Source of the DNA: a virus
Taxonomy: Duplodnaviria > Heunggongvirae > Uroviricota > Caudoviricetes
IMG/VR virus record: IMGVR_UViG_2675903606_000019
Location: 1 to 11,135 of that record
DNA: 11,135 nt
Direction: 5' to 3' (one strand)
This document shows, in pieces, positions 1 through 11,135 of the stretch. Each line of letters begins with the position of its first letter. Positions within the stretch are counted from its first letter, which is position 1. The position numbers and the translations under genes were made by a program. Under the pieces are notes generated by a model. The model was not told where the DNA came from, ran no database searches, and saw only the letters and a list, made by a program, of their open reading frames with translations.

Positions 1-1218
1 ATGAACAAACTGAGCGATACCTTGCTAAGGAAACTTCATGGTAAGCCAGCGGAGAAAAACACGTTTTATAGTGATGGCGGAAACCTGAGCGTGAAATATT
101 TAACATCAGGGAAATTGACCTGGTATTTCACATACAGGGCCGGAACGGGAAGGGAGACACGACCCGAACGCATTAAGCTGGGAAGTTATCCTGATCTGAG
201 CCTGAAAGCAGCCAGGGAAAAAGCCGCACAGTGTCGCACATGGCTGGCTGAGGGGAAAAATCCACGTCATGAGATGAATTACACCGTACAGGAAGCGTTA
301 AAGCCCGTAACGGTTGGCGATGCGCTCACCTACTGGCTTGAGTATTACGTAAAGGAAAACCGCGTGGATTATATCGCCCTGAAAAGGCGACTTAATAATC
401 ACGTAATACAGCAGATTGGTGCTATGCCGCTGGATAAATGCGAGCTACGGCACTGGCTGGCCTGTTTTGACCAGGTGGCAAAGCGAACGCCTGTTACTGC
501 CGGATTCGTGCTACAGGCGTGCAAACAGGCGCTTAAGTTCTGCCGTAGGCGGCGCTATGCAATCAGCAACGTTCTGGACGATCTGAACGTGGCGGACGTT
601 GGGAAAAAACCGGATATAAGCGAACGTGTCTTAAGTAACAAAGAACTTGGCGAATTATTGCAGGCACTGGACAAAAAAATATTTTCCCCTTACTACGTCG
701 CGTTAATCCGCCTCCTGATTGTCTTCGGAGCCAGGACGGTAGAACTGAGGCTATCGGAGATCGGGGAGTGGGATTTTACGGAAATGCTATGGACCGTTCC
801 GAAGGAGCACAGCAAAACGAAGGTCGCAATATTCCGGCCCATACCGGAAGCGATCCTGCCGTTCGTCACGCAGCTGGTGGAGCAGAACAGGCACACGGGC
901 TTATTGCTGGGGGAAGCGAAACAGGAGGCCAGCGTATCGCAGTATGGAAGATTAGCGCACAGGAGGCTTAATCATCCTCACTGGTCACTGCATGACATCC
1001 GGCGCACCTTTACAACCATGCTGAACGATTTAGGCGTTGATCCGCATGTCGTGGAGCAGCTTACAGGTCATCAGATGCCAGGAATGCAGCGAGTTTATAA
1101 TCATTCCCGTTATCTGGATGCTAAACGCAATGCGCTGGATATGTGGACGGAGCGGTTAGGGATACTGGCGGGAACACATGAAAACGTAACCACGCTACCA
1201 GTAGCCAGAAGAAAATAA
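1..1218 (+). CDS. int: P4-family tyrosine integrase (site-specific recombinase)
   Basis: 405-aa ORF from the track. N-terminal arm-binding-type segment (GKLTWYFTYR, GSYPDLSLKAAREKA) and C-terminal tyrosine-recombinase signature (HDIRRT ... GHQMPGMQRVYNHSRY). Overall pattern matches P4/CP4-57 IntA-type integrases from memory. Confidence 0.9.
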   Translation: MNKLSDTLLRKLHGKPAEKNTFYSDGGNLSVKYLTSGKLTWYFTYRAGTGRETRPERIKLGSYPDLSLKAAREKAAQCRTWLAEGKNPRHEMNYTVQEALKPVTVGDALTYWLEYYVKENRVDYIALKRRLNNHVIQQIGAMPLDKCELRHWLACFDQVAKRTPVTAGFVLQACKQALKFCRRRRYAISNVLDDLNVADVGKKPDISERVLSNKELGELLQALDKKIFSPYYVALIRLLIVFGARTVELRLSEIGEWDFTEMLWTVPKEHSKTKVAIFRPIPEAILPFVTQLVEQNRHTGLLLGEAKQEASVSQYGRLAHRRLNHPHWSLHDIRRTFTTMLNDLGVDPHVVEQLTGHQMPGMQRVYNHSRYLDAKRNALDMWTERLGILAGTHENVTTLPVARRK

Positions 1219-1236
1219 TTTTTTTCGTGTTTTTTC

Positions 1237-1252
1237 AGTATGCGCATACTGG
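1237..1252. repeat. Perfect 16-bp palindrome CAGTATGCGCATACTG just 3' of int
   Basis: Read directly from the sequence. A T-run precedes it on the plus strand and no U-run follows, so it is more likely a protein-binding dyad than a terminator. Confidence 0.6.
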
Positions 1253-1263
1253 ATATGCGAACA

Positions 1264-1320
1264 GATACAACATGCAACAATGAGCAACAATGCGGAACAA
1301 CTACGAACAAGAGGCGAAAA
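1264..1320. repeat. Helically phased (10-bp period) AACAA/ACAA repeats, 5-6 copies
   Basis: Consecutive 10-nt blocks each end in ACAA: gatACAA / catgcAACAA / tgagcAACAA / tgcggAACAA / ctacgAACAA / gaggcgAAAA. Strict 10-bp phasing suggests same-face binding sites or a bent-DNA element in the int-alpA spacer. Confidence 0.5.
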
Positions 1321-1404
1321 AGTGTACGGATTTATAAGTGGCTGATTTTTAATGTGTTACTGGTTTTTTATACACTAGCGAATCACTCTTTAAATAGCGA
1401 GAAA

Positions 1405-1433
1405 AAAGGCATGAAACAATATTTTATGCCTTT
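1405..1433. terminator. Hairpin AAAGGCAT-N13-ATGCCTTT flanked by A-run and T-run (possible bidirectional terminator)
   Basis: 8-bp inverted repeat seen in the sequence. On the minus strand the stem is followed by UUUUUUCUC, on the plus strand by UUUGUAUU. The loop is large (13 nt), so the call is weak. Confidence 0.3.
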
Positions 1434-1592
1434 GTATTAACATGAATTTAAATGATTTTATCCTGATTATTCCTGTTTCTGTAAACCATACGACCTCAAC
1501 ATTTGCCAACTCTGAATCATCCTGACACAATCAGACACATCCCAACGCAATAGAACACGAAATAACTCTTTAAGAAACGAAAGGGGGCAATA

Positions 1593-1781
1593 GTGTTAAG
1601 CACTGATCGGTTTATACGTGAAAAAGAATGCGAAAAGCTAACAGGCCTTAGCCGCTCATGCCGCTACCGCCTGGAAAAGGCCGGACAATTCCCATCACGT
1701 CGTAAACTTGGCGGTCGTTCCGTTGGCTGGTCTTTATCCGAGGTTCTGGCCTGGAAGGATAGCTGCAAGGCAGTTCATTAA
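1593..1781 (+). CDS. alpA: AlpA-family prophage transcriptional regulator (small HTH protein)
   Basis: 62-aa ORF with GTG start at 1593 and RBS AAGGGGG about 6 nt upstream. Pattern EKLTGLSRSCRYRLEKAGQFPSRRKLGGRSVGWSLSEVLAW matches the AlpA signature (G.SR...Y.....G.FP....LG.RSVGW...E...W). Confidence 0.85.
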   Translation: MLSTDRFIREKECEKLTGLSRSCRYRLEKAGQFPSRRKLGGRSVGWSLSEVLAWKDSCKAVH

Positions 1782-1927
1782 TCACGCTGGCGGCACACAG
1801 CCGCCACACATCAATCATCTGAACACAGAGCTATAACCATGAAGATTGAATATACGCCAGAACGTGGGCGGGGATTCGTTCGCCCTGGTGAGACTGGAAA
1901 ACCACAAAATTGGGGTTTTTCAGGCAT

Positions 1928-1955
1928 AAAAAAAGCGGCCCCGAAATGGAGCCGC
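1928..1955 (-). terminator. Rho-independent terminator for the leftward small-gene operon
   Basis: GC stem GCGGC/GCCGC (1935-1939 / 1951-1955) with possible inner pairs. On the minus strand it is followed by a 7-U run (complement of A-run 1928-1934). It lies about 100 nt downstream of the minus-strand gene ending at 2051. Confidence 0.5.
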
Positions 1956-2050
1956 CTTTCTGAACAGATAACCCGCTGCGCCGTTTGTGTGTGTGATCCC
2001 AAACATAAGCACGGGGATGATAGCCGCTATCAGGCTGGTGGGCAATGCAA

Positions 2051-2239
2051 TCAGTCTGGTTCAGTTCGTTGCCATACCTGCAATGAGCGCTTTTCCCTGT
2101 ACTCTTTAAGGAATTGCTCAAGGGCAAAAGCACATGGCGCGAATCTTTCTGATTCATGTTCTATCTTTCTGCGCCGTCTTTTCCGTGCCGGTGATAATGT
2201 TTTGGTCAATTCTTTATCGGTCATTGTGTTGTCCTGCAT
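2051..2239 (-). CDS. Small basic hypothetical protein (62 aa; alternative start at 2224 gives 57 aa)
   Basis: Track ORF MQDNTMTDKELTKTLSPARKRRRRKIEHESERF... The second ATG (MTDKEL) has an AGGA RBS 7 nt upstream. Arg/Lys-rich segment suggests nucleic-acid binding. It sits second in a leftward two-gene unit ending at the terminator near 1928-1955. Confidence 0.5.
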   Translation of the reverse strand: MQDNTMTDKELTKTLSPARKRRRRKIEHESERFAPCAFALEQFLKEYREKRSLQVWQRTEPD

Positions 2240-2281
2240 AGCAATGCGCCGTAATACCTTACACCACGGCGCTGATGGTGA

Positions 2282-2461
2282 TTACTCTGGTTCTTTGGCC
2301 TTGCGCCGCTGGCGATATTCAACTTCTCGTTTTAATGCTGCAGTAACAAATTGCCCCGTACTTTCGCCAGGCATTTTTACCGCCTCAACATTGTTCATAA
2401 CTTCATGCGGAACCCTTGCCGCAACGGTTTGTGATTTTGCGTTTACTGCTTTTGTCGCCAT
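2282..2461 (-). CDS. Small hypothetical protein (59 aa, below the ORF-track cutoff), candidate switch regulator
   Basis: Hand-translated from the minus strand: MATKAVNAKSQTVAARVPHEVMNNVEAVKMPGESTGQFVTAALKREVEYRQRRKAKEPE, stop TAA. RBS GAGGGG lies 8-13 nt upstream of the ATG (complement of 2459-2461). It is the first gene transcribed leftward from the operator region. Confidence 0.5.
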   Translation of the reverse strand: MATKAVNAKSQTVAARVPHEVMNNVEAVKMPGESTGQFVTAALKREVEYRQRRKAKEPE

Positions 2462-2511
2462 GTGGTGTACCCCTCATAAAAAACAAATGCAGTATGCAGG
2501 AAAAAAAATAA

Positions 2512-2563
2512 GTGTTCAACACTTGACGTGTTTAACACCTGGGTTTAAATTGGTGTTCAACAC
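2512..2563. promoter_or_regulatory. Three near-palindromic 11-bp operator-like sites GTGTT(C/T)AACAC overlapping divergent promoter elements
   Basis: Sites at 2512-2522, 2528-2538 and 2553-2563. Rightward -35 TTGACG (2523-2528) and -10 TAAATT (2546-2551, 17-bp spacer) lie between and within the sites. On the minus strand a TTGAAC -35 lies inside site 1. The region sits between divergently oriented small genes. Confidence 0.5.
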
Positions 2564-2660
2564 CTTGTTGGCGCAAGGTGCAGAAACGACGAAACCCGGC
2601 AGTGCGCTAACACTAACCGGGCTTCTAACCACCAACGATAGCGAAAGTATCGAGGTAGCT

Positions 2661-2864
2661 ATGAGAAATAATACCACACACCCGCAAGGGCGGGATTCGC
2701 ACAACCTGAATAAATACATCTGGCGTTTTATCGCCCTGAGCACGGCACAACCGCGCGTGATTACCATTGAGGCCACCAGCGAACAGGAAGCACGCCAGCA
2801 ATCTCCGGCTGGCTGCGTGATGGTATTCGCCGCCCGTATTCGTCAAGGGGTGTGCCATGACTGA
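2661..2864 (+). CDS. Small hypothetical protein (67 aa), first gene of the rightward early operon
   Basis: ATG at 2661 preceded by GAGGT RBS. In frame with the long track ORF 1839..2864 but only this 3' part is plausible. Its stop TGA (2862-2864) overlaps the next start ATG (2857-2859), consistent with translational coupling. Confidence 0.55.
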   Translation: MRNNTTHPQGRDSHNLNKYIWRFIALSTAQPRVITIEATSEQEARQQSPAGCVMVFAARIRQGVCHD

Positions 2865-3177
2865 TATGTCAAATTACCAGTACCTGATTAATCCGCATTT
2901 TAACTGTGAGCATGATATTGCTAAAAAGGTTTATTCCGCTGCGGATGGGGCTACTGACAATATATCAATGGCTGTTTCGTCAATTGGTAGCCTGATGTGG
3001 TATGCGTCAGAAAATAAGGAATATGACGAAAAGGCCATGCGCATTGATATGGGTAATATCGGTTTGTTACTGGCAATGCTTGGACAGTTTAATATTTCGT
3101 TACGGTGCACCATTGAAAATGCCACAGATGCATTAAATGCCATAAAGAAAGCGAATACTGATTCAAATCGGGGATAA
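2857..3177 (+). CDS. Hypothetical protein (106 aa), AT-rich cargo-like gene
   Basis: Track ORF MTDMSNYQYLINPHFNCEHDIAKK... Start overlaps the upstream stop (ATGACTGA). Visibly lower GC than neighbouring genes (estimated by eye). No recognisable family signature. Confidence 0.65.
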   Translation: MTDMSNYQYLINPHFNCEHDIAKKVYSAADGATDNISMAVSSIGSLMWYASENKEYDEKAMRIDMGNIGLLLAMLGQFNISLRCTIENATDALNAIKKANTDSNRG

Positions 3178-3183
3178 ATAATC

Positions 3184-3483
3184 ATGAGAACATATTTATC
3201 TGGCTTGACTGCCAGCGGTTATGCACACCCAAAAATTATCCCCGGCGCTATTTATCTGGATAAGAACGGTAACAGAGTAACGGTAAAAGAACTGATGTTT
3301 GACCGTGTTTATTTTATCCGTGATGGATATTCATTTCTTAGTTCGCTGAACGTGGAGATCTTTATTTGCAGATTCCGGCGGGAAATCCCGACTTCCAGAA
3401 ATAACCATGTGTCACGTGTGGATGTGGATAAAAAACTACAGGAACTGAAAAACATGATTGCCGCGTGGAGAGAGCAGAAATGA
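3184..3483 (+). CDS. Hypothetical protein (99 aa), AT-rich cargo-like gene
   Basis: Track ORF MRTYLSGLTASGYAHPKIIPGAIYLDKNGNRVTVKELMFDRVYFIRDGYSF... RBS GGGGA upstream. Its stop TGA (3481-3483) overlaps the ATG (3480-3482) of the primase gene (ATGA coupling). Confidence 0.65.
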   Translation: MRTYLSGLTASGYAHPKIIPGAIYLDKNGNRVTVKELMFDRVYFIRDGYSFLSSLNVEIFICRFRREIPTSRNNHVSRVDVDKKLQELKNMIAAWREQK

Positions 3484-5603
3484 AAAAAGCGCCAAATTTA
3501 AAACACCAGCCGCGTGACAAAATGACGGAAGTCATCATTTTTGCGGGTAGTGATGCGTGGGCACATGCGAAGCAGTGGCAGGAACAGGACGGGCGACTGG
3601 CTGGCGACAGCGTGCCTCCTGTCTGGCTTGGAGAGCAACAACTTGCCGAACTGGATAAGCTGCAAATTGTGCCGGAAGGCCGAAAATCAGTACGCATATT
3701 CAGGGCCGGACATCTTGAGCCAGTAATGATCAAGGCGATTGGTCAGAAGCTGGCGGCGGCAGGCGTACAGGATGCAAATTTTTACCCTGATGGAATGCAC
3801 GGTCAGGAGGTGGAGAACTGGCGCGAATATCTAGCCCGTGAGCGGCAGAATCTTTCTGATGGTCTGGTTATTGAGTTTCCGGTAAAGAAAAAAGATACCG
3901 GAAGCCATAGCGATGACGAATTAAAGCCACGCGTTGAAAGTCGCGCCGATGGTGTTTTCTGGGTAACGCCCAAAGTGGATAAGCAGTCAGGCGAAATTAT
4001 CCGGCCTGAGACGTGGTTATGTTCTCCGCTTGAACTACTGGGAACGGGGACGATCGGTAAAGAGCATTACCGCGTGATGCGCTGGAAAAAAACCGCAAAC
4101 CATGAAGTCATCACAATGGCGATCCCGTGTGGTGGTATCGGCGACCGTGACGGCTGGCGGTTACTTAAAGATCACGGGCTGAACGTGACAACCAACGGCA
4201 AATACAGGGCAATCCTGGCGGACTGGATGCAGTTAAGCGGAAGCCATGAGGAATGGCAGTTAAGCACAACAACGGGCTGGCATTTTGGCGCGTACATCAT
4301 GCCGGACGGTTCGATCATTGGTGAATCTGAAAAACCGATCCTGTTTACCGGAAAAAGCGCCGCGATTAACGGTTATTCCGTGGCGGGCACGGCGGATGGC
4401 TGGCGCGACAGCGTGGCGCGGCTGGCTGGCGGTAATGCCTCAATGATGCTGGGTGTGGCAACGTCACTGGCAGCGCCTTTAATTGGCCTTGTGGGTGCTG
4501 ACGGCTTCGGGGTGCATCTTTTCGAACAGTCATCGGCAGGTAAGACCACCACGCAGAACATCGCATCAAGTTTATGGGGAGAGCCGGACGCGCAGCGGCT
4601 GACCTGGTACGGCACGGCGTTAGGTATTGCCAATGAGGCCGAGGCCCATAATGACGGGCTTTTACCACTGGATGAGATAGGCCAGGCCGGAAATGCGCGG
4701 GAAGTGTCAACGTCTGCTTATACGCTGTTTAACGGTTCAGGGAAATTGCAGGGGGCGAAGGATGGCGGCAACAGGGAGATCAAACACTGGCGAACGGTGG
4801 CAATCAGCACCGGAGAAATGGACGTTGAGACATTCCTCAAAAGTGAGGGGATAAAAGTTAAGGCGGGGCAGCTTGTCCGACTGCTTAACGTTCCGATGGA
4901 AAAAGCCACGAAATTTCACGAATACAGCAACGGTAAGGAACATGCTGACGCGTTAAAGGATGCCTGGACAGCAAATCACGGGGCGGCGGGTCGTGAGTGG
5001 GTTAAATGGCTGGCAGGCCACCAGCAGGAGGCAAAGGATACGGTAAGGGAATGCCGCGAACGGTGGCGCAACCTGATACCGGAGAGCTACGGCGAGCAGG
5101 TCCACCGCGTGGGTGAACGTTTCGCCATACTGGAGGCCGCGCTTGTGCTTTCCGGTCATGTAACTGGCTGGGTCGTGCAGGAATGCCGCGACGCGATACA
5201 GCATAACTTTAATGCCTGGGTGAAGGAGTTCGGCACGGGTAACAGGGAATTTAAACAGATGGTTGAACAGGCTGAGGCGTTTTTGTCGTCGTTTGGGTTT
5301 AGCCGCTACCTTCCGTACCCCAATACAGATGAGCGTGATTTACCGATTAAAGAGCTTGCCGGATACAGAAAAGGGAGCATTCGCAACGAAGATGACGAGA
5401 TGCGCTATTACACGTTCCCGCACGTGTTTGAGAGTGAGATAGCGAAGGGATTTAATCCGGCGCATTTTGCGCGTGCCCTGGATGCTGCCGGAATGCTGGA
5501 GAAGGGAAGCGATCGCCGATACAAAAAAAAGGCGCTGGGCAAGATTGGGGGTAAGCAGCATGTTTTTTACGTGCTGATGTTCCAGCCTGATGATGAAGAT
5601 TAA
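3480..5603 (+). CDS. Replication primase/helicase-type protein (P4 alpha / PICI Pri-Rep-like; NTPase with Walker A motif)
   Basis: About 707 aa (track ORF 3465..5603; the ATG at 3480 with ATGA overlap is preferred, ATG at 3465 or 3522 possible). Contains Walker A-like SSAGKTTT and is followed directly by an iteron array. Size and position match the satellite/prophage primase-helicase class. The exact domain family needs a profile search. Confidence 0.8.
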   Translation: MKKAPNLKHQPRDKMTEVIIFAGSDAWAHAKQWQEQDGRLAGDSVPPVWLGEQQLAELDKLQIVPEGRKSVRIFRAGHLEPVMIKAIGQKLAAAGVQDANFYPDGMHGQEVENWREYLARERQNLSDGLVIEFPVKKKDTGSHSDDELKPRVESRADGVFWVTPKVDKQSGEIIRPETWLCSPLELLGTGTIGKEHYRVMRWKKTANHEVITMAIPCGGIGDRDGWRLLKDHGLNVTTNGKYRAILADWMQLSGSHEEWQLSTTTGWHFGAYIMPDGSIIGESEKPILFTGKSAAINGYSVAGTADGWRDSVARLAGGNASMMLGVATSLAAPLIGLVGADGFGVHLFEQSSAGKTTTQNIASSLWGEPDAQRLTWYGTALGIANEAEAHNDGLLPLDEIGQAGNAREVSTSAYTLFNGSGKLQGAKDGGNREIKHWRTVAISTGEMDVETFLKSEGIKVKAGQLVRLLNVPMEKATKFHEYSNGKEHADALKDAWTANHGAAGREWVKWLAGHQQEAKDTVRECRERWRNLIPESYGEQVHRVGERFAILEAALVLSGHVTGWVVQECRDAIQHNFNAWVKEFGTGNREFKQMVEQAEAFLSSFGFSRYLPYPNTDERDLPIKELAGYRKGSIRNEDDEMRYYTFPHVFESEIAKGFNPAHFARALDAAGMLEKGSDRRYKKKALGKIGGKQHVFYVLMFQPDDED

Positions 5604-5625
5604 TCCCCTGTGTGAGGAAAAAAAT

Positions 5626-5941
5626 TGCGGGTTATGCGGGTTATCCTGTGTATAAGTGTATTAAGTGCATGAATATAAAGGAAACCAATAACCCGCACGT
5701 AACCCGCAAAAGGGCATTTATAACCCGCAAAAGCACGATTATAACCCGCAGGCGAATAACTGAAGTAACACCGGACAGTCATGCGTAACCCGCAGAAAAA
5801 ACCCAGTTTGCGGGTTATTTTGAGCGTTTTGCGGGTTACGTGGTGAGCAAATAATAAACAGGGTGTTTTGCAAAATACTGATATAAAAGGATAAAAAATG
5901 GTTAGCACGCTAAGATAACCCAATAACCCGCATAACCCGCA
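5626..5941. repeat. Iteron array: about 11-12 copies of TAACCCGCA in both orientations (probable replication origin)
   Basis: Reverse copies (TGCGGGTTA) at 5626-5634, 5635-5643, 5809-5817, 5830-5838. Forward copies at 5689-5697, 5700-5708, 5721-5729, 5742-5750, 5786-5794, 5924-5932, 5933-5941, plus a degenerate copy near 5914-5922. AT-rich stretches at 5855-5960. Lies immediately downstream of the primase/helicase gene. Confidence 0.75.
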
Positions 5942-5973
5942 CATGTTTCTATATATATAAATTGAGGTGGCAA

Positions 5974-6225
5974 ATGACCAGAACACGCAGAGACAGAACA
6001 GAGCCAAAATATAAAGCGTTAGACATGACTGAGCACACCTTAAAGGTGGCAATCAGAACGATAGACCGCCACACGCGGGAAGGATACGCGAAGGAACATC
6101 CCGACCTGATAAGCGCATTCATGACCACGGCGGCGGCAAACTTTGCCACGCTGACAGAACGGGAGATTGCCGAAGCGGAACAGGTAACAACCATCAACGT
6201 TAAAACCGGAGAGGTGGAATCATGA
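5974..6225 (+). CDS. Hypothetical protein (83 aa from ATG 5974; the track starts at TTG 5962)
   Basis: RBS GAGG at 5964-5967 precedes ATG 5974. Its stop overlaps the ssb start (ATGA at 6222-6225). No family recognised. Confidence 0.6.
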   Translation: MTRTRRDRTEPKYKALDMTEHTLKVAIRTIDRHTREGYAKEHPDLISAFMTTAAANFATLTEREIAEAEQVTTINVKTGEVES

Positions 6226-6632
6226 CAGCACAGATAGCGGCTTACGGTCGGCTGGTGGACGACCCGCAGGTAAAACAGACCAGCAAGGGCACACCGATGA
6301 CGCTGGCGCGTATGGCGGTATCACTGCCATGCAGTCAGGCACAGGACGGACAGGCGACGTTATGGCTATCGGTCATCGCATTTGGTAAGCAGGCCGACTT
6401 CCTGGCTAAACATCAAAAAGGCGACGTTGCCAGCGTATCCGGCACGATGCAGGTAAGCCAGTGGACCGGACAGAACGGGGAGACGCGTCAGGGTTATCAG
6501 GTTATTGCAGACAGCGTAATCAGTGCCCGTGCGGCACGTCCTGGCGGGAACAGACGCAAAACCACAGGCGCACAGGGTAATCAGCCACCAGCGGGAGGCG
6601 ATGACCCTTACGGTGATGATATTCCGTTCTGA
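6222..6632 (+). CDS. ssb: Single-stranded DNA-binding protein (SSB), short form with canonical acidic C-terminal tip
   Basis: 136 aa. OB-fold-like core (GRLVDDPQV..., W...FGKQADFL..KG..V...G......W....G..R) and C-terminus ending DDPYGDDIPF, matching the conserved SSB DDDIPF tail that recruits partner proteins. Confidence 0.85.
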   Translation: MTAQIAAYGRLVDDPQVKQTSKGTPMTLARMAVSLPCSQAQDGQATLWLSVIAFGKQADFLAKHQKGDVASVSGTMQVSQWTGQNGETRQGYQVIADSVISARAARPGGNRRKTTGAQGNQPPAGGDDPYGDDIPF

Positions 6633-6642
6633 GGGGGTGACG

Positions 6643-6915
6643 ATGGTACATGACCGCATAGCGGAAGAACTCGAAGCGAAAGGATTTTACCGGAGGGCGG
6701 CGGCGCGATGGGGTGAAGTCATGATGCTGGTGGAGACAGACAAGGAACGGCATCACATCACGATGCGACGGCTGGAATGTTCCAGGAAGGCACAGAGGCC
6801 ACCGGAGCCGCCGGATAACTTCGGAGACCTGAGAAAGGCAGTCGATCGCACTTATGCTGAAATGGGTATAGATGGTGTAAGCGATGAAATATGGCGTAAT
6901 TACCCAGGCAGCTAA
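6643..6915 (+). CDS. PerC-like small transcriptional regulator (90 aa)
   Basis: ATG at 6643 with RBS GAGGGGG 5 nt upstream (the track ORF 6523..6915 is in frame but its 5' part overlaps ssb). Motif EELEAKGFYRRAAARWGEVMM resembles the PerC-family signature (G-[FW]-[WY]-RRAA-x-RW) as I recall it. Confidence 0.55.
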   Translation: MVHDRIAEELEAKGFYRRAAARWGEVMMLVETDKERHHITMRRLECSRKAQRPPEPPDNFGDLRKAVDRTYAEMGIDGVSDEIWRNYPGS

Positions 6916-6921
6916 TCAACA

Positions 6922-6943
6922 GCCGGAGTAATCCGGCTTTTTT
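6922..6943 (+). terminator. Rho-independent terminator after the replication module
   Basis: Stem GCCGGA/TCCGGC with GTAA loop followed by TTTTTT (6938-6943). Confidence 0.7.
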
Positions 6944-6956
6944 GTACCCAAAAAAA

Positions 6957-6992
6957 GCCCGATAAGTACAGGAGGCATCTTATCGGGCTTTT
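6957..6992. terminator. Second hairpin terminator, potentially bidirectional
   Basis: 10-bp stem GCCCGATAAG/CTTATCGGGC with 12-nt loop. A-run upstream (6950-6956), TTTT downstream, and a further T8 run at 7003-7010. Confidence 0.5.
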
Positions 6993-7071
6993 GCATATGA
7001 GGTTTTTTTTGGTGCACTGACACACATGATCGGGATCATCATTTCATAATTTGCAACACAACTCAACATCA

Positions 7072-7099
7072 TTGCATAAAATGCAATCATGATTATAAT
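7072..7099 (+). promoter_or_regulatory. Strong sigma70-like promoter for the capsid operon (-35 TTGCAT, 16-bp spacer, -10 TATAAT)
   Basis: TTGCAT at 7072-7077 and a perfect TATAAT at 7094-7099. Located about 55 nt upstream of the first late-operon start codon. Confidence 0.5.
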
Positions 7100-7103
7100 C
7101 AGA

Positions 7104-7119
7104 TCTGGATGAACATCCA
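7104..7119. promoter_or_regulatory. Perfect inverted repeat CTGGATG-AA-CATCCAG at the predicted transcription start
   Basis: Seen in the sequence. Followed within 6 nt by a T6 run (GATTTTTTAAG). Could be an operator or a 5' RNA hairpin/attenuator. A second dyad, ATGATC-GG-GATCAT, lies upstream at about 7026-7039. Confidence 0.45.
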
Positions 7120-7155
7120 GTTATGATTTTTTAAGTCAAAGAGGAATTTCTTACT

Positions 7156-7362
7156 ATGGCTGAAGAGAAAAAAGGCGGTGTTTCGGTGTACATAAGCCCC
7201 GACATCGTGAAGGCGCTCAAGGAACGCCACCAGCAGAACGTAAAAGCAGGCATTGCGGCAGGACTTGATCCGCTGGCGATGGTTGAGCCGTCAACAGGCT
7301 GGCAGGTACGCGCCTATTTACGCGCGGCGCTGGGTATGAATCAGGTTCACGGGGGTGAATAA
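7156..7362 (+). CDS. Hypothetical protein (68 aa), first gene of the capsid operon
   Basis: RBS GAGGA 10 nt upstream. Its stop TAA overlaps the major capsid gene start (TAATG at 7360-7364). No family recognised. Confidence 0.6.
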   Translation: MAEEKKGGVSVYISPDIVKALKERHQQNVKAGIAAGLDPLAMVEPSTGWQVRAYLRAALGMNQVHGGE

Positions 7363-8417
7363 TGACAGTAAAAGCAATAGCACTTAACACTAACCAGCTT
7401 TTTGTGTACCTGAATCGCGAGGATATTGCGGAATTTAAATTCAGTCCGCTGTTTACCGCGCTGTTTTTCCCGAACGTGGCGACATTCAACACACAGGACA
7501 TCATGTTAGATAACCTGGATATTGAAGAAGTCACTATGTCGGCGTTTTGTTCGCCTATGGTGGGTAGCCAGGTTCAGCGCGATAAAGGGTACGAAACAAG
7601 CATTATTCGCCCTGGCTACATGAAGCCAAAACACGAAATCGATCCATTAAAAACAATAATGCGCATGGCTGGAGAAGATCCAGCACAGCTTAACGACCCT
7701 ACCTACCGCCGTATGCGCCTGATTACTGGCAACATGCGCCGCCAGATAAACGCCATTAAAGCGCGCGTGGAATGGCTGGCGGTAAATGCGGTAACGACCG
7801 GAAAAAACATCATTGAGGGCGAAGGCATAGAGCGCTATGAAATCGACTGGAAGATACCGGAAAAAAACATCATAGAGCAGGCCGACGGTAAAAAATGGTC
7901 AGAGCAGGACAAAGACATACACGACCCAATCTATGACATTGAGCTATACGCAGATCAGGCAGGTTGCCCCGCCAACGTCATGATTATGGGCGTTGATGTA
8001 TGGCGCATGTTACGCAGCTTTAAAAAATTCCGTGAACTGTACGATCTCTCCCGTGGTTCAGAATCCGCCGCAGAGCTGGCATGTAAAAACCTGGGCGAAG
8101 TGGTGAGCTTTAAAGGCTATCTTGGTGATCTGGCCCTTATCGTCTATTCCGGCAAATACACTGACAGCGACGGCACAGAAAAATATTTCCTTGAGCCTGA
8201 TTTGCTGGTCCTGGGCAACACCAACAATAAAGGGCTGGTGGCCTATGGTGCGATTATGGAACAGGAAGCGGTAAGAACGGGCGCAACGCAAAACATGTTT
8301 TACCCGAAAAACTGGATTGAAGACGGCGATCCGGCGATTGAGTACGTGCAGACACACAGCGCACCGCAGCCTGTTCCGGCAGATATTCGCAAATTTGTTA
8401 CCGTCAAAATTGGTTAA
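7362..8417 (+). CDS. Major capsid protein, lambda gpE family
   Basis: 351 aa. Multiple blocks match phage lambda gpE as recalled: FKFSPLFTALFF (lambda FKFDPLFLRLFF), PGYMKPKHEIDP (PGYVKPKHEVNP), EDPAQLNDPTYRRMRLITGNMRRQ (EDPQNLADPAYRRRRIIMQNMRDE), YPKNWIEDGDPAIEYVQTHSAP (YPKNWVTTGDPAREFTMIQSAP). Confidence 0.9.
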   Translation: MTVKAIALNTNQLFVYLNREDIAEFKFSPLFTALFFPNVATFNTQDIMLDNLDIEEVTMSAFCSPMVGSQVQRDKGYETSIIRPGYMKPKHEIDPLKTIMRMAGEDPAQLNDPTYRRMRLITGNMRRQINAIKARVEWLAVNAVTTGKNIIEGEGIERYEIDWKIPEKNIIEQADGKKWSEQDKDIHDPIYDIELYADQAGCPANVMIMGVDVWRMLRSFKKFRELYDLSRGSESAAELACKNLGEVVSFKGYLGDLALIVYSGKYTDSDGTEKYFLEPDLLVLGNTNNKGLVAYGAIMEQEAVRTGATQNMFYPKNWIEDGDPAIEYVQTHSAPQPVPADIRKFVTVKIG

Positions 8418-8428
8418 CGGTGGATTCT

Positions 8429-8764
8429 ATGAACACTCCATACATTGAGTTATTTGCAGGCAGTCAGCAGGTATCAACGACGCTGGTACATTTTGCCGCT
8501 GATGCTGGCGTTATTCAGGAATTTACCCCGCTGATGCTGGCGGACAATGGCGAGTTTAAGCCGTGGGATGGTCAGGAATCTGGCAAGGCTGTTTATCTGA
8601 CCTCGTACCCCGTTGACACGTCGACGCAGAAATCAGCACAGTGCTATAAGACGGGGATATTCAATATCGCCGCCGTTAACTGGCCTGAGAGCGTCGACAC
8701 CGATGCGAAAAAATGCGCCGCCTTTGCGGGTTCTGGCGTATCCGTTCAGCCGCTGGCCCGATAA
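8429..8764 (+). CDS. Head decoration protein, lambda gpD family
   Basis: 111 aa from ATG 8429 (the track starts at GTG 8420); RBS GGTGGA 5 nt upstream. Matches lambda gpD blocks: TPLMLADNGEFKPWDG (lambda TPLMLDTSSRKLVAWDG), YKTGIFNIAAVNWPESVDTDAKKCAAFAGSGVSV ([35 protein letters not shown]). Confidence 0.85.
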   Translation: MNTPYIELFAGSQQVSTTLVHFAADAGVIQEFTPLMLADNGEFKPWDGQESGKAVYLTSYPVDTSTQKSAQCYKTGIFNIAAVNWPESVDTDAKKCAAFAGSGVSVQPLAR

Positions 8765-8776
8765 GCAGGGGGAACG

Positions 8777-9190
8777 ATGGCAACGAATGAAAGCATCATG
8801 GCGCTACCGCTGGCGAGTAAATTTAAAGCCGAAGCGCGGGCAATGGCTGACAGAGGGTTATCAACCTACGAGGCCGTATATCAACTCAACAAACTGGAAG
8901 AACAGGACAAGCCGCGCGCTGATGCGATTATGGCGCTTCATGAACATAACGACTATCAGCCGCTGTTACGTGCAATGGCAAACGTGCCATGTATTAGCGT
9001 CGATAATGCTCGTGAAATCCTGAACATGACCATAGAGCAGGAGCGCCCAAAGGTTGCACCAGAGCTTACCGCAGCCTTTGAAAACTTTATGGACATGCAC
9101 AGCCCGCAAGCCGTATCAGCTGGCATGGCATACGATGGCAGAAACCAGGGCGATGACGGCGACATCGATCACATACTGAAAACCATCTGA
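8777..9190 (+). CDS. Hypothetical protein (137 aa), last gene of the capsid operon
   Basis: RBS AGGGGGA 4 nt upstream of the ATG. Acidic C-terminus. No resemblance noted to lambda FI/FII/W as I recall them. Followed by a strong terminator. Confidence 0.65.
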   Translation: MATNESIMALPLASKFKAEARAMADRGLSTYEAVYQLNKLEEQDKPRADAIMALHEHNDYQPLLRAMANVPCISVDNAREILNMTIEQERPKVAPELTAAFENFMDMHSPQAVSAGMAYDGRNQGDDGDIDHILKTI

Positions 9191-9196
9191 GACAAG

Positions 9197-9220
9197 GCCG
9201 GAGAAATCCGGCTTTTTTTT
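9197..9220 (+). terminator. Strong rho-independent terminator (GNRA tetraloop hairpin plus T8)
   Basis: Stem GCCGGA/TCCGGC with GAAA loop and 8 T (9213-9220). The stem is identical to that of the terminator at 6922-6943. Confidence 0.8.
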
Positions 9221-9298
9221 ACGGGTCCTTTCCGGCATATGGACCCGTTACGGGGCGGCGACCTCGCGGTTTTTCGCTATTTATGAGCCTTTTCAGGG
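9221..9298. other. Lambda-type cos site (cosQ-like, cosN 12-nt cohesive end GGGCGGCGACCT at 9253-9264, start of cosB)
   Basis: ACGGGTCCTTTCCGG...GTTACG-GGGCGGCGACCT-CGCGGTTTTTCGCTATTTATGA closely matches the right and left termini of phage lambda as I recall them (right end ...ACGGGTCCTTTCCGGTGATCCGACAGGTTACG, left end GGGCGGCGACCTCGCGGGTTTTCGCTATTTATGA...). Sequence diverges from lambda after about 9298. Confidence 0.8.
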
Positions 9299-9358
9299 GG
9301 GTGGTGGTGGTTTTGTTGTTTGCTCTATCTTTATGAATGAAAAGGGAAAGATGCAAAC

Positions 9359-9396
9359 AATACACCAACCTGAAGCAGTAATTAAGTTGGTGTATT
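9359..9396. repeat. Perfect 11-bp inverted repeat AATACACCAAC-N16-GTTGGTGTATT abutting the terS start codon
   Basis: Read directly from the sequence. The right arm ends 2 nt before ATG 9398. Candidate cosB-type binding site or a translational-control hairpin. Confidence 0.5.
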
Positions 9397-9397
9397 A

Positions 9398-9940
9398 ATG
9401 AAATCGCACCTGATGAACAAAAAAAACATGGCGAAAAGCTGCCGTGTAAGTGCGACAGCGTTCGACAAGTGGGGAGTGACTCCCGTTGAACGTAAAGGCC
9501 GTGAGGCGTTTTACGATGTTGCCAGCGTGATAGACAATAGGGTTAACAATGCAATTAGCCAGCTTACAAACGACAAAGGCGATATTGATGATGATGAACT
9601 CTTACGAGTCAGGATCAGATTACTGACAGCACAGGCGGAGGCGCAGGAACTTAAAAACGAGCGCGATCGCGGTGACGTGATCGATACTGAGTTTTGCCTG
9701 TACGCGCTTTCAAAGCTGGCGAGTCAGATTTCATCAATCATGGACAGCCTCCCGCTTACTATGCAAAGGAGCTTCCCACAGATTACCCCCGCCATGCTGG
9801 ATAGGCTTAAAAGGGAAGTGGTTAAAGCCTGTAATGCCAGTGCCAGAGTTGCCGACAACCTCCCACAGATACTGGCTGATTACTTGAAAGAAACAACCGG
9901 AAACGTACCGGAAAAGTTGCAGCCGAATAAAGATAAGTAA
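9398..9940 (+). CDS. Terminase small subunit, lambda Nu1 family
   Basis: 180 aa. C-terminal two thirds align with lambda Nu1 as recalled: RLLTAQAEAQELKNERDRGDVIDTEFCLYALSKLASQISSIMDSLPLTMQRSFPQ (lambda RLTRAQADAQELKNARDSAEVVETAFCTFVLSRIAGEIASILDGLPLSVQRRFPE). N-terminal region is more divergent but still shows NKK...W...G.PV.R.G....YD.A.VI. Confidence 0.85.
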   Translation: MKSHLMNKKNMAKSCRVSATAFDKWGVTPVERKGREAFYDVASVIDNRVNNAISQLTNDKGDIDDDELLRVRIRLLTAQAEAQELKNERDRGDVIDTEFCLYALSKLASQISSIMDSLPLTMQRSFPQITPAMLDRLKREVVKACNASARVADNLPQILADYLKETTGNVPEKLQPNKDK

Positions 9941-9951
9941 CGTAGTACGCT

Positions 9952-10233
9952 ATGACTGAATCCGAAATACTGCGATTAATCCGCCGCGTCTCTGGAATCA
10001 GCCAGCAGGCTGACGAACAGACCACGCAGCCGGACAGCGTGACAGCCGAAAACTATGCGCGTGTTGTTGCTGAGGTGATGCGCCGTGATGGTATAGAACT
10101 TAATGGCGTGGATATGCGCAACATACGAACCAGAGTTCTTGAGTTGCTGGCCTACCGTCGCCGCGTGGAGATGTATCGGGAGAAGGAGAAAATAACGTAC
10201 CACTGGAAGAAGCCGGAGCGGTTGCGGCGGTAA
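9952..10233 (+). CDS. Hypothetical protein (93 aa) downstream of terS
   Basis: Track ORF MTESEILRLIRRVSGISQQADEQ... It occupies the position where lambda has the large terminase gene A, but is far too small to be a terminase. No family recognised. Confidence 0.55.
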   Translation: MTESEILRLIRRVSGISQQADEQTTQPDSVTAENYARVVAEVMRRDGIELNGVDMRNIRTRVLELLAYRRRVEMYREKEKITYHWKKPERLRR

Positions 10234-10526
10234 CTGGTTGATATTCCCGACGGACCAAAAATGGGTGGCTACATCCCTCGCTTCTGAGGACTGTTAACAA
10301 GCTGCCTGAAAGACAGTCACAAACTACGAAATTTTCGCAGTTTAATTAATGATCAGCTTAATCGCTAACCCGCTGATATTTTCGGAAACCTCAATTTGAG
10401 GAAGTCGGCGCGGTAACTCGCTGAACTTTAAGCAAAGCGCAAAATTGCGCTTGCTGAATAATCATTATGATTACGCAGATGATTAAGGAATGACCGAAGG
10501 CGGAAATTCGCCTGTGGTTAATGGGG

Positions 10527-10546
10527 GAGTTGCAGATCTGCAACTC
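10527..10546. repeat. Perfect 20-bp palindrome GAGTTGCAGATCTGCAACTC
   Basis: Read directly from the sequence. A perfect 20-bp palindrome is very unlikely by chance in 11 kb. Confidence 0.7.
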
Positions 10547-10552
10547 GACCAT

Positions 10553-10639
10553 GAAACTACGGAAACTACCCGTAGTTTGGGTAGTAAGAGTAACACCCAG
10601 ATTTTGGGTCTTACTCGTGATACCCAAATTTGGGGTATC
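10553..10639. repeat. Half-site array (AAACTAC x2, then GTAGTTT and a partial GGGTAGT) followed by two adjacent stable hairpins / palindromic sites
   Basis: AAACTAC at 10554-10560 and 10563-10569, GTAGTTT at 10572-10578, partial copy at 10579-10585. Hairpin GAGTAA-c-ACCCA-gattt-TGGGT-c-TTACTC (10588-10616). Hairpin GATACCC-aaatttg-GGGTATC (10619-10639). The two ACCCA...GGGT units are direct repeats of a palindromic site about 27 bp apart. Confidence 0.55.
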
Positions 10640-10902
10640 AGTGGCAACCATAACGACTTTCGTTACGGTTGATGCTTTTACCCCATTGGGGGAAAGGTAT
10701 TACGATAATCATAACACCTACCGAACAGGTAAAGCCCACCAGCCTGATTAACGTTTAACCGGAAAAAAATTCCGGTAGGTGGGGATCCCCATATCGACAT
10801 TAACGCCCCTCATGAATTGGTGCGCTTCCCCCTGGAAAGATGATCCGCCTGTATATTTCTTGTGTCTATTTGTTCCACGTTGTTTCATACAGTGCACCGA
10901 AC

Positions 10903-10924
10903 GGTGTAGTCACTGGTGTAGTCA
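10903..10924. repeat. Tandem direct repeat GGTGTAGTCA x2 (12-bp period) near the right junction; candidate integrase arm-type sites
   Basis: GGTGTAGTCA at 10903-10912 and 10915-10924, followed by TTTTGCG repeats at about 10924-10950. About 75 bp inside the proposed junction. Confidence 0.4.
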
Positions 10925-10976
10925 TTTTGCGATTTTTGGCACTTTTTGCGGTGAAAATTATTTAATTAAATCAACG

Positions 10977-11135
10977 TGTTATGTGAAATAAGTTATATAT
11001 AACAGCAATAAATAATGCGAGAATAAACGGCACGATGATCTCGGTGGCAAAACGGATACCGCAGAGAATAATGACCAGCATTCCCAACATAATGACGATT
11101 TTTAGGCCATTGAGCGTGATGATCGGCTTTGCCAT
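10977..11135 (-). pseudogene. tqsA: Truncated 5' fragment of a tqsA-like (AI-2 exporter family) membrane protein gene; likely chromosomal flank interrupted by the element
   Basis: Minus-strand ORF of 52 codons, [52 protein letters not shown], then TAA. The first 46 or so residues match the N-terminus of E. coli TqsA/YdgG as I recall it; the reading frame then diverges and stops, where the native protein continues for about 300 more residues. Confidence 0.55.

Follow-up and report, generated by a model that had tools for sequence, protein, structure and literature searches.

The stretch of DNA considered here, an 11,135-nt window covering positions 1 to 11,135 of the IMG/VR virus record IMGVR_UViG_2675903606_000019, is by its gene content a Gram-negative phage-inducible chromosomal island (PICI) of the EcCICFT073/CP-933C type, and the element under study is the spacer that separates its replication/accessory genes from an operon of capsid-type and packaging genes (Table 1). 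The window holds the features by which such islands are recognized, namely an integrase gene, an alpA-type regulator gene, a primase gene with iterons at its 3' end and genes that all run in one direction, and at 11.1 kb, with no lysis or tail genes, it falls within the expected size of ~10-20 kb. From left to right the spacer carries two terminator-shaped hairpins (T1 and T2), a short upstream dyad, two direct repeats (R1 and R2), a promoter and a palindrome followed by a T-run (T3), which lies over the predicted start site. Published work on EcCICFT073/EcCIEDL933-type PICIs has dealt with how AlpA drives induction of their early unit and with packaging through Rpp (PMC6092414, PMC6739421), and in the literature on these islands we found no description of the present promoter, terminators or R1/R2 repeats.

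Three comparisons underlie the results. The spacer was aligned with twelve E. coli relatives obtained via BLAST (74-100% identity, unselected by motif), a second set of 80 distinct IMG/VR sequences was collected with a motif pattern, and a third alignment brought together six diverged lineages, including one capsid-forming PICI (cf-PICI) of the HK97 type (L010, which is the same as L176). The alignment of BLAST relatives and that of the six lineages are the comparisons without motif-selection bias. A double-dyad scan of IMG/VR, which returned mostly unrelated coding repeats, was the source of the loci L159 and L122, both of which are partial.

T1 directly follows the perC stop codon and travels with the perC module in relatives; its 7-bp GC-rich stem (6921-6938) and T-run (6939-6943) fold at -12.6 kcal/mol (z -3.8). 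The stem of T2 (6957-6966/6979-6988) is lengthened by A/U pairs to 6953-6992 and folds at -20.5 kcal/mol (z -4.6), and it was overlooked by the terminator scan because its loop of 12 nt is longer than 8 nt. Both hairpins have canonical intrinsic-terminator structure as judged by shape and fold, with U-runs of 5 and 4. Among relatives the T2 stem is conserved and the loop is variable, L011, L159 and L122 carry a different A-run/GC-stem/T-run hairpin at the T2 position, and in every lineage a terminator of this build lies 40-60 bp upstream of the conserved core. That a terminator is kept at this place despite a wholly different sequence is good evidence that termination there matters. The two terminators that the initial annotation placed ahead of the capsid operon are therefore bona fide by fold and positional conservation, T1 and T2 probably terminate transcription, and the proposed insulation of the operon from upstream transcription is supported.

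The promoter of the operon has a -35 element that agrees with TTGACA at 3/6 positions (TTG being retained), a spacer of 16 bp and a -10 element that matches at 6/6. With a -35 below 4/6, it went unlisted in a consensus scan. The pattern TTGnnn-N16-18-TATAAT occurs once in the window and at least once in 23% of shuffled windows, and the promoter call consequently rests on conservation and not on the match. The TTGC of the -35 is invariant in the six lineages, as are the TA and the final T of the -10, with the variants TAAAAT and, less clear, TATTGT/TGTAAT in L122, and the hexamers, 16-18 bp apart, are conserved among relatives as expected of a sigma70 promoter. One of the lineages that keep it is the cf-PICI, with an unrelated set of genes downstream (HK97 capsid, protease, portal, connectors, HNH, TerL). 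A promoter whose key bases are invariant ahead of unrelated modules is therefore real and part of a cassette that drives interchangeable morphogenesis modules. Of the near-consensus promoter described initially, the perfect -10 and the assignment as the operon's own sigma70-type promoter stand, while the "good" -35 has to be toned down to a moderate one. Transcription would start at about 7105-7107, judging from the -10. In the cf-PICI the leader extends over about 170 nt from the -10 to the HK97 capsid start and contains an 8-bp GC stem (CCCGCCTG/CAGGCGGG); sequence inspection places an 11-bp hairpin and T7 directly before the start codon, with the ribosome-binding AGGA in the 3' arm, which may form a leader terminator or a trap for the ribosome-binding site.

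Conservation in the region is highest in a 20-nt direct repeat that had been overlooked at first. R1 (7037-7056) and R2 (CATCATTGCATAAAATGCAA, 7067-7086) are 85% identical at a spacing of 30 bp and share the dyad type TTGCA-N5-TGCAA, and R2 overlaps the -35 and half of the spacer. The alignment of BLAST relatives has R1/R2 conserved where the flanks have diverged; in the six lineages the TGCAA and ATT.CA of R1 are invariant, and likewise the TTGC and ATG.AA of R2, and L159 carries two perfect TTGCA-N5-TGCAATGATG sites 32 bp apart. The invariance of ATG.AA at a place where sigma70 promoters need no particular sequence points to a bound protein, and R1/R2 may well be bound cooperatively by a dimeric regulator. 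Since R2 lies over the -35 and the -10 is already perfect, such a regulator would more likely limit initiation than activate it. The suggestion of operator control made from symmetry has thus gained support, in that operator-like symmetry does overlap the promoter.

The 240-bp spacer is rich in symmetry as a whole, with 11 perfect dyads of 6-bp arms against 0.73 expected (15 times chance), a number reached by 0/2000 shuffles. Not all of these dyads are conserved. The perfect upstream dyad named in the initial annotation is present, and its proposed operator role is not borne out by conservation: it is perfect only in the window/L001 lineage, through a single base, C for A, with GATAAT at this position in most relatives and unrelated sequence in other lineages. 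The control region has three GATC (Dam) sites (7028-7031, 7034-7037 and 7102-7105), of which at least the second and the third are specific to the window/L001 lineage, relatives having GATAAT and CATAACTGG, CAGAGCTGG or CAGGACTGG. A search of the spacer for hidden small open reading frames (ORFs) gave only minus-strand ORFs of 35-43 aa (35-37 aa for those wholly inside the spacer), none of them with support, and an Rfam scan of the whole window at E <= 1 gave for the control region solely a 27-bit match to a streptococcal sRNA (gathering score 208), which we regard as noise.

At the start site the initial annotation had seen the dyad CTGGATG-AA-CATCCAG and a T-run. Both are there (dyad at 7105-7120), and the description was incomplete, the dyad being the core of a 32-bp palindrome with 15-bp arms (7097-7111/7114-7128) that directly abut the T-run, so that no 6-nt gap separates stem and T-run. 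The palindrome folds at -11.1 kcal/mol in the window, where it has two internal mismatches, and at -17.7 kcal/mol (z -6.6) in the commonest relatives, where the arms are perfect. Over 21 distinct variants 94.6% of the cells are paired, which 1/500 shuffles reach, and three pairs have changed on both sides (e.g., AATCAGGAC/GTCCTGATT, AATCACAAC/GTTGTGATT and AATTATAAC/GTTATAATT). The pair counts against shuffles thus indicate that complementarity is maintained, though templated quasi-palindrome mutation could mimic this. A comparable hairpin is absent from L011 (fold about -4.7 kcal/mol, z near 0) and, on inspection, from L159, and the cf-PICI has a different sequence. The full hairpin can form only in transcripts that come from upstream because its 5' arm begins inside the -10 element; in RNA from the predicted start the hairpin would shrink to 5-7 bp and end 7 nt before the U-run, which does not make a terminator. 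The promoter-proximal attenuator that had been proposed is therefore not supported, given that RNA from the promoter cannot hold the whole hairpin and that diverged relatives lacking the hairpin keep the promoter. The palindrome is better seen as a probable fail-safe terminator for read-through.

Expression data are available for a close relative. In EDL933 exposed to ciprofloxacin and followed by RNA-seq and proteomics, Stx-phage genes went up 30-110-fold, with Q and the late genes up 30-70-fold (PMC11125564, Table S1). For the O157 relative of the island, CP-933C, the RNA of the primase gene was up 5.3-fold and that of the major capsid gene down 1.8-fold; the capsid protein was detected at an essentially unchanged level (1.56-fold at 3 h and 1.03-fold at 12 h), as was the product of the gene just upstream (-1.48-fold and -1.05-fold), which from the order of locus tags would be the 68-aa gene (PMC11125564). 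The early unit responds to induction, whereas no response is seen in the capsid operon, whose products are there from the outset, as insulation by T1 and T2 predicts. These data argue strongly, if not finally, against LexA derepression and, as far as the phages resident in EDL933 go, against a helper late regulator that activates the operon or acts by antitermination. Relief by a helper late regulator had been suggested initially, and constitutive expression had been named beforehand as one of two observations that would together speak against it, the other being the lack of a short terminated transcript; constitutive expression is what CP-933C appears to display, with capsid RNA falling while the Stx-phage late genes were induced.

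We therefore consider, with a probability of roughly 60%, that the region is the boundary of two PICI transcription units and consists of a terminator-insulated, constitutive promoter of the capsid operon with an R1/R2 operator pair and a fail-safe palindrome. T1 and T2 would halt transcription coming from the inducible early/replication unit (alpA ... pri, ssb, perC), and the morphogenesis/packaging operon would start from its own sigma70 promoter, TTGCAT-16-TATAAT. This promoter would be active in the resting island, and capsid-type proteins would be made constitutively and independently of island induction, as one published dataset on a close relative suggests; the operon of the window island is probably constitutive, as that of EDL933 apparently is. 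A dimeric regulator would limit initiation through the two phased 20-bp dyads in which the promoter is embedded. In the main lineage the palindrome and T-run would act as a third terminator for read-through, which transcripts from the promoter would escape, keeping just a short hairpin at the 5' end.

Several points weigh against this reading. A literature search found no start-site, termination or binding experiment for the region, and the expression data come from one study of a relative about 88% identical, with a single RNA sampling time and a strain that has 18 prophages. Three successive terminators seem redundant. With a -35 of 3/6 and a 16-bp spacer the promoter may be weak unaided, and R1/R2 could then be activator sites. 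The motif pattern used to collect the 80 IMG/VR sequences forces the conservation of R1/R2 in that set. In the palindrome, mismatches of the G.U type and the A.C type are about equally frequent, and the compensatory-looking changes could come from templated quasi-palindrome mutation and not from selection.

Outside the islands, a blastn search of phage genomes (2.3 Gb) gave matches (E 0.01) only to virulent, T1-like members of the Braunvirinae. In phiA2-1 and TR1 four TTGCA-N5-TGCAA dyads, spaced 31, 17 and 30 bp, stand within 95 bp of a single intergenic region; the array (ATCATTGCA-N5-TGCAA ... 31 bp ... CATCATTGCATTAAATGCAAT) is collinear with R1-R2 over about 60 bp, and R2 is identical to phiA2-1 at 22/23 positions. 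The phage array is like that of the island in its half-site CATCATTGCA, its dyad and its 30-31-bp phasing, and unlike it in having four sites and no TATAAT at the matching position; it precedes an early operon that runs rightward, close to the packaging start. In the T1-like phage records L112 (2280-2340, 2613-2636) and L113 the array adjoins a very A/T-rich repeat tract. Downstream of the array comes one copy of the 21-nt intergenic repeat of the T1 type (ATAGCAC...TTG.TAAA), the function of which has been called unknown (PMC11447400), and in the TR1 record the packaging start is on this array/repeat stretch.

As to what might bind R1/R2, no protein is common to the islands and phage phiA2-1 at E <= 1e-3. 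No island protein was found to be common to all fetched R-bearing lineages, two loci being partial: p87, SSB, PerC and p93 are common to E-type and cf-type islands and were not found in the partial L159/L122 loci. A host factor is therefore one possibility. Among specific candidates, PerC was rejected as activator or binder, many relatives having the same promoter without perC, and AlpA is unlikely, since the window has no R-like site ahead of the alpA-like gene or at any other place. A role of R1/R2 as origin iterons was also rejected, the iterons of the window being the repeats 3' of the primase gene, and a by-eye comparison with the Fur, IHF, CRP, FNR, NsrR and Fis consensus sequences was unconvincing (best Fur, 13/19). 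A scan of metagenomes for perfect sites found isolated sites that look like chance, except for one PICI. CytR recognizes TTGCA/TGCAA pentamers with flexible spacing (PMC3454398). The island has four such pentamers within 45 bp, the best fits to the CytR octamer GTTGCATT are 6-7/8 and the conserved flank CATCAT falls outside the CytR motif; good CRP sites (TGTGA-N6-TCACA) flanking R1/R2 were not seen by eye.

Under the model of the initial annotation a strong promoter is held back by a promoter-proximal attenuator or operator until a Q-like antiterminator or late activator of a helper relieves it, and a terminator-shaped hairpin and T-run do lie between the -10 and the ribosome-binding site; in addition, by our own reading of the sequence, a hairpin and T-run close the cf-PICI leader (about 170 nt) just before the capsid gene, and R2 has ATTG.ATAAAAT in common with the lambda pR' spacer. 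This last likeness (an 11/12 match) was judged to be chance, as it is 5-6 bp out of register with the lambda Q-binding position. Likewise, a sigma70-dependent pause element, for which the -10-like TTATGA at +16 was considered, was rejected, since the sequence varies (TTGTGA, TCCTGA, TTCTGA). With the register off, the pause element variable and no induction alongside phage Q, the region does not have the make-up of a lambda Q-type antitermination site. The 5' arm of the hairpin lies upstream of any start that this -10 could give, capsid RNA was not raised when Stx-phage Q and the late genes were, and we hold the helper-relieved attenuator to be very improbable. Control by the SOS response, in which LexA would sit on the 20-mer over the start and DNA damage would derepress the capsid/packaging operon, has more in its favor. 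On a matrix built from 18 LexA boxes (PMC3009722, Table 4) the 20-mer of the window, a CTG-N10-CAG sequence, has a heterology index of 9.18, within the 0.3-9.3 of the known boxes, and the index is 6.0-7.4 in most relatives (highest 9.12); a site as good as 9.18 occurs in about 3% of shuffled windows, and one as good as those of the relatives in <1%. Its arms, CTGGAT/ATCCAG, are identical to those of the ruvA box (index 6.5), the CTG and CAG are invariant in 21 variants, changes of CATCCAG to CATACAG break the hairpin yet improve the LexA fit, a location over +1 is typical of SOS boxes and DNA damage is also the signal that induces helper prophages. Against this, any CTG..CAG palindrome with an A/T-rich center scores reasonably on the matrix, the box is missing in the L011, L159 and cf-PICI lineages that keep the promoter, and the EDL933 copy scores 6.3 yet the operon of that strain was not induced by DNA damage in the one dataset available, its capsid RNA falling with ciprofloxacin and its proteins already present. 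SOS control is accordingly unlikely in our estimation.

In another explanation, the 68-aa product of the first gene might be a ribbon-helix-helix-type protein that binds the palindrome over -10 to +23 and keeps the operon at a steady level. The palindrome co-occurs with a close 68-aa gene, is degenerate where the gene has diverged (L011, L159) and is absent from the cf-PICI, which lacks the gene; protein levels in EDL933 were steady, and in L122 the R1/R2 promoter is followed by a small protein that is ribbon-helix-helix-like by eye. The predicted topology is strand, helix, helix (strand 9-13, helix 15-34, helix 47-58), in a monomer model with a pLDDT of 74.5. No Pfam, NCBIfam or PDB sequence match and no Foldseek match with E < 1 was obtained for the protein, so that neither family nor sequence nor fold speaks for DNA binding, and the gene might equally encode a structural or assembly factor; we rate such negative autoregulation as rather improbable. 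A further explanation dispenses with a dedicated regulator and takes R1 as an UP-like A/T-rich element, R2 as the -35 and spacer arisen by tandem duplication, and the palindromes as incidental. R1 is located where UP elements lie, its left part is A/T-rich and expression in EDL933 is constitutive, all of which would fit. The G/C-containing positions TGCAA of R1 and ATG.AA of R2, the latter in the promoter spacer, are, however, invariant across lineages that differ at neighboring bases, identically spaced copies of these dyads occur in unrelated phages that have no matching -10, and the density of dyads far exceeds chance. A promoter with no regulator of its own is in our view similarly improbable, and about as little credence goes to R1/R2 as sites for a factor common to the islands and virulent T1-like phages, whether a host regulator or a phage protein that the island promoter senses. 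The collinear arrays, the blastn match and the near-identity at R2 would be accounted for, as would the lack of a common protein between islands and phiA2-1 and of an island protein in all R-bearing lineages fetched, and CytR is the only E. coli regulator documented for TTGCA/TGCAA pentamers, its published motif matching (PMC3454398). On the other side, the conservation (CATCATTGCA) exceeds the CytR octamer and has A where CytR prefers G, no flanking CRP sites were noticed by eye, the matching stretch is short and rich in A/T, the single perfect sites found elsewhere in metagenomes seem due to chance, and no helper relationship of T1-like phages with PICIs is documented. More doubtful still is a specific form of this proposal, that R1/R2 are the operator for a regulator common to the PICI and cf-PICI morphogenesis promoters and the early region of Braunvirinae coliphages, as a shared host signal or as mimicry by which the island would sense infection by virulent phages not known to interact with PICIs.

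Table 1. Features of the window; positions are counted from its first nucleotide.
Feature	Position	Strand or direction	Remarks
Tyrosine integrase gene (int)	1-1218	rightward	
AlpA-type excisionase/regulator gene	1593-1781	rightward	
DUF4222 (RgdR-family) protein gene			
DUF927 primase gene (pri)	3465-5603	rightward	
Iterons TAACCCGCA	5625-5944		directly 3' of the primase gene
ssb gene			upstream (replication/accessory) unit, before perC
PerC-family gene	6643-6915	+	last gene of the upstream replication/accessory unit; Pfam PF06069, E 4e-44
Predicted terminator T1, AGCCGGA-GTAA-TCCGGCT + TTTTT	6921-6943	+	terminator scan and RNA fold
Predicted terminator T2, bidirectional shape: A-run, 10-bp GC stem GCCCGATAAG/CTTATCGGGC, 12-nt loop, T-run	6950-6992	+	RNA fold
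Upstream dyad ATGATC-GG-GATCAT, two GATC sites	7026-7039	.	lineage-specific
Repeat R1 CATCATTTCATAATTTGCAA, dyad TTTCA-N5-TGCAA	7037-7056	.	center about -57 from the predicted start
Repeat R2 CATCATTGCATAAAATGCAAT, perfect dyad ATTGCAT-AAA-ATGCAAT	7067-7087	.	covers -35 and spacer; center about -27
-35 element TTGCAT	7072-7077	+	TTGC invariant in six lineages
-10 element TATAAT, within 12-bp palindrome TGATTATAATCA (7090-7101)	7094-7099	+	predicted start about 7105-7107
32-bp palindrome AATCAGATCTGGATG-AA-CATCCAGTTATGATT (7097-7128) + T-run (7127-7132), T3	7097-7132	+	terminator-shaped
LexA-box-like 20-mer ATCTGGATGAACATCCAGTT, CTG-N10-CAG	7103-7122	.	over the predicted start site; function doubtful given the EDL933 data
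Shine-Dalgarno AGAGGA (7140-7145) and ATG (7156) of the first operon gene	7140-7158	+	kept in all E-type relatives
First operon gene, 68 aa	7156-7362	+	PHROG 3255 (unknown function)
Lambda-E-like major capsid gene	7362-8417	+	
Lambda-D-like decoration gene	8420-8764	+	
137-aa protein gene	8777-9190	+	similar to the C-terminal part of head-maturation proteases
Predicted terminator between the 137-aa and Nu1-like genes	9194-9215	+	
Nu1-like small terminase gene	9398-9940	+	

Within the operon, the 137-aa protein aligns over residues 45-119 with a head-maturation-protease PHROG, at the C-terminal end of the latter (E 7e-10), which suggests a Nu3-like scaffolding protein; the operon would then have capsid, decoration and scaffold, without portal, protease or large terminase. 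A strong terminator (9194-9215 / 9251-9266; -16.3 kcal/mol, T8) divides the capsid/scaffold genes from the Nu1-like gene, and the 200-bp gap after it is the expected place for a lambda-type cos site. In the upstream unit, the longest ORF for the PerC gene begins at 6523, and RefSeq relatives annotate 273 nt; perC is missing from many relatives that retain the promoter. The iterons number about a dozen, are 9-10 bp long and have TTGCGGGTTA on the opposite strand, a layout published as a PICI replication origin. Just 3' of int (1268-1315) there are four tandem repeats of about 10-11 nt, of the type GCAACAATG/GGAACAAC/CGAACAAG, which could be binding sites for the integrase arm domain or the excisionase. 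Two further LexA-box-like 20-mers lie between int and the alpA-like gene, TACTGGATATGCGAACAGAT at 1247-1266 (index 11.6) and TACTGGTTTTTTATACACTA at 1358-1377 (5.0 on the minus strand, but with GTG for CTG), and these might tie the early unit to the SOS response. On the minus strand at 2588-2660 there is a weak match to the SymR antitoxin RNA (33 bits against a gathering score of 61, E 0.0034), antisense inside a 341-aa gene whose C-terminus matches PHROGs annotated as transcriptional repressor and which is annotated as Icd-like in RefSeq relatives.

The stretch from 6850 to 7250 was found in 736/5426 complete E. coli genomes at 80-100% identity, the carriers including Nissle 1917 and O157:H7, and relatives are integrated at tRNA-Pro, roxA/phoQ and yrbL. 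In a collection of one genome per species, a scan for the capsid protein found zero relatives and a scan for the DNA pattern gave a single unrelated match, so the control-region motif appears essentially confined to Escherichia islands. The 93-aa protein that closes the operon (9952-10233) is 89% identical to the product of the last gene of the complete cf-PICI (L176, 6183-6461). Identities between E-type and cf-type islands are 84-98% for the flanking genes, namely p87, ssb and perC on the upstream side and p93 at the other end; it seems that the two kinds of island have fixed flanks and that the morphogenesis cassette in between has been swapped. The IMG/VR contig L159 carries two lambda E/D-type capsid and decoration pairs (4008-5401 and 8300-9627), which are 63%/52% and 44%/41% identical to the window proteins, and may be an island adjoining a prophage.

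The region is thus a promoter insulated by terminators, an element of an ordinary sort in an island family that is already known, and the R1/R2 array shared with T1-like phages is a curious feature. Its interest lies in the fact that PICI induction via AlpA and the redirection of packaging via Rpp have been studied, and the transcription of the capsid and packaging genes has not. A separate, insulated and probably constitutive operon fits a view of the capsid, decoration and small-terminase homologues as standing interference or defense factors and not as late genes. One promoter cassette drives two unrelated modules, a partial lambda-type set and the complete HK97-type set of the cf-PICI, and it therefore marks a recombination joint that could be of practical use in island engineering. 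R1/R2 also offer a concrete target of about 50 bp for identifying the regulator.

In the lambda pR'-qut-tR' region, as here, a near-consensus constitutive promoter has a terminator-shaped element nearby; unlike in lambda, the hairpin of the island starts upstream of the start site, a conserved pause-inducing -10-like element is lacking and the operon is unresponsive to phage Q induction. The packaging operon of the staphylococcal islands, SaPI operon I, is transcribed from a LexA-repressed promoter. As in SaPI operon I, a satellite's packaging/morphogenesis operon has its own promoter, apart from the master-regulated early unit, and a LexA-box-like dyad lies over the start site; the E. coli operon differs in that an SOS inducer did not induce it in one dataset and in that the box is missing in several lineages. 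The closest likeness is to the EcCICFT073 and EcCIEDL933 (CP-933C, O-island 51) PICIs (PMC6092414, PMC6739421), whose gene order and content are identical to those of the window: int, an alpA-like gene, DUF4222 (RgdR), primase, 3' iterons, PerC, a lambda-type capsid gene and a Nu1-like homologue, with all genes rightward and a size of about 11-15 kb. A direct relative is the island located between roxA and phoQ in O157:H7, the capsid proteins being 94% identical.

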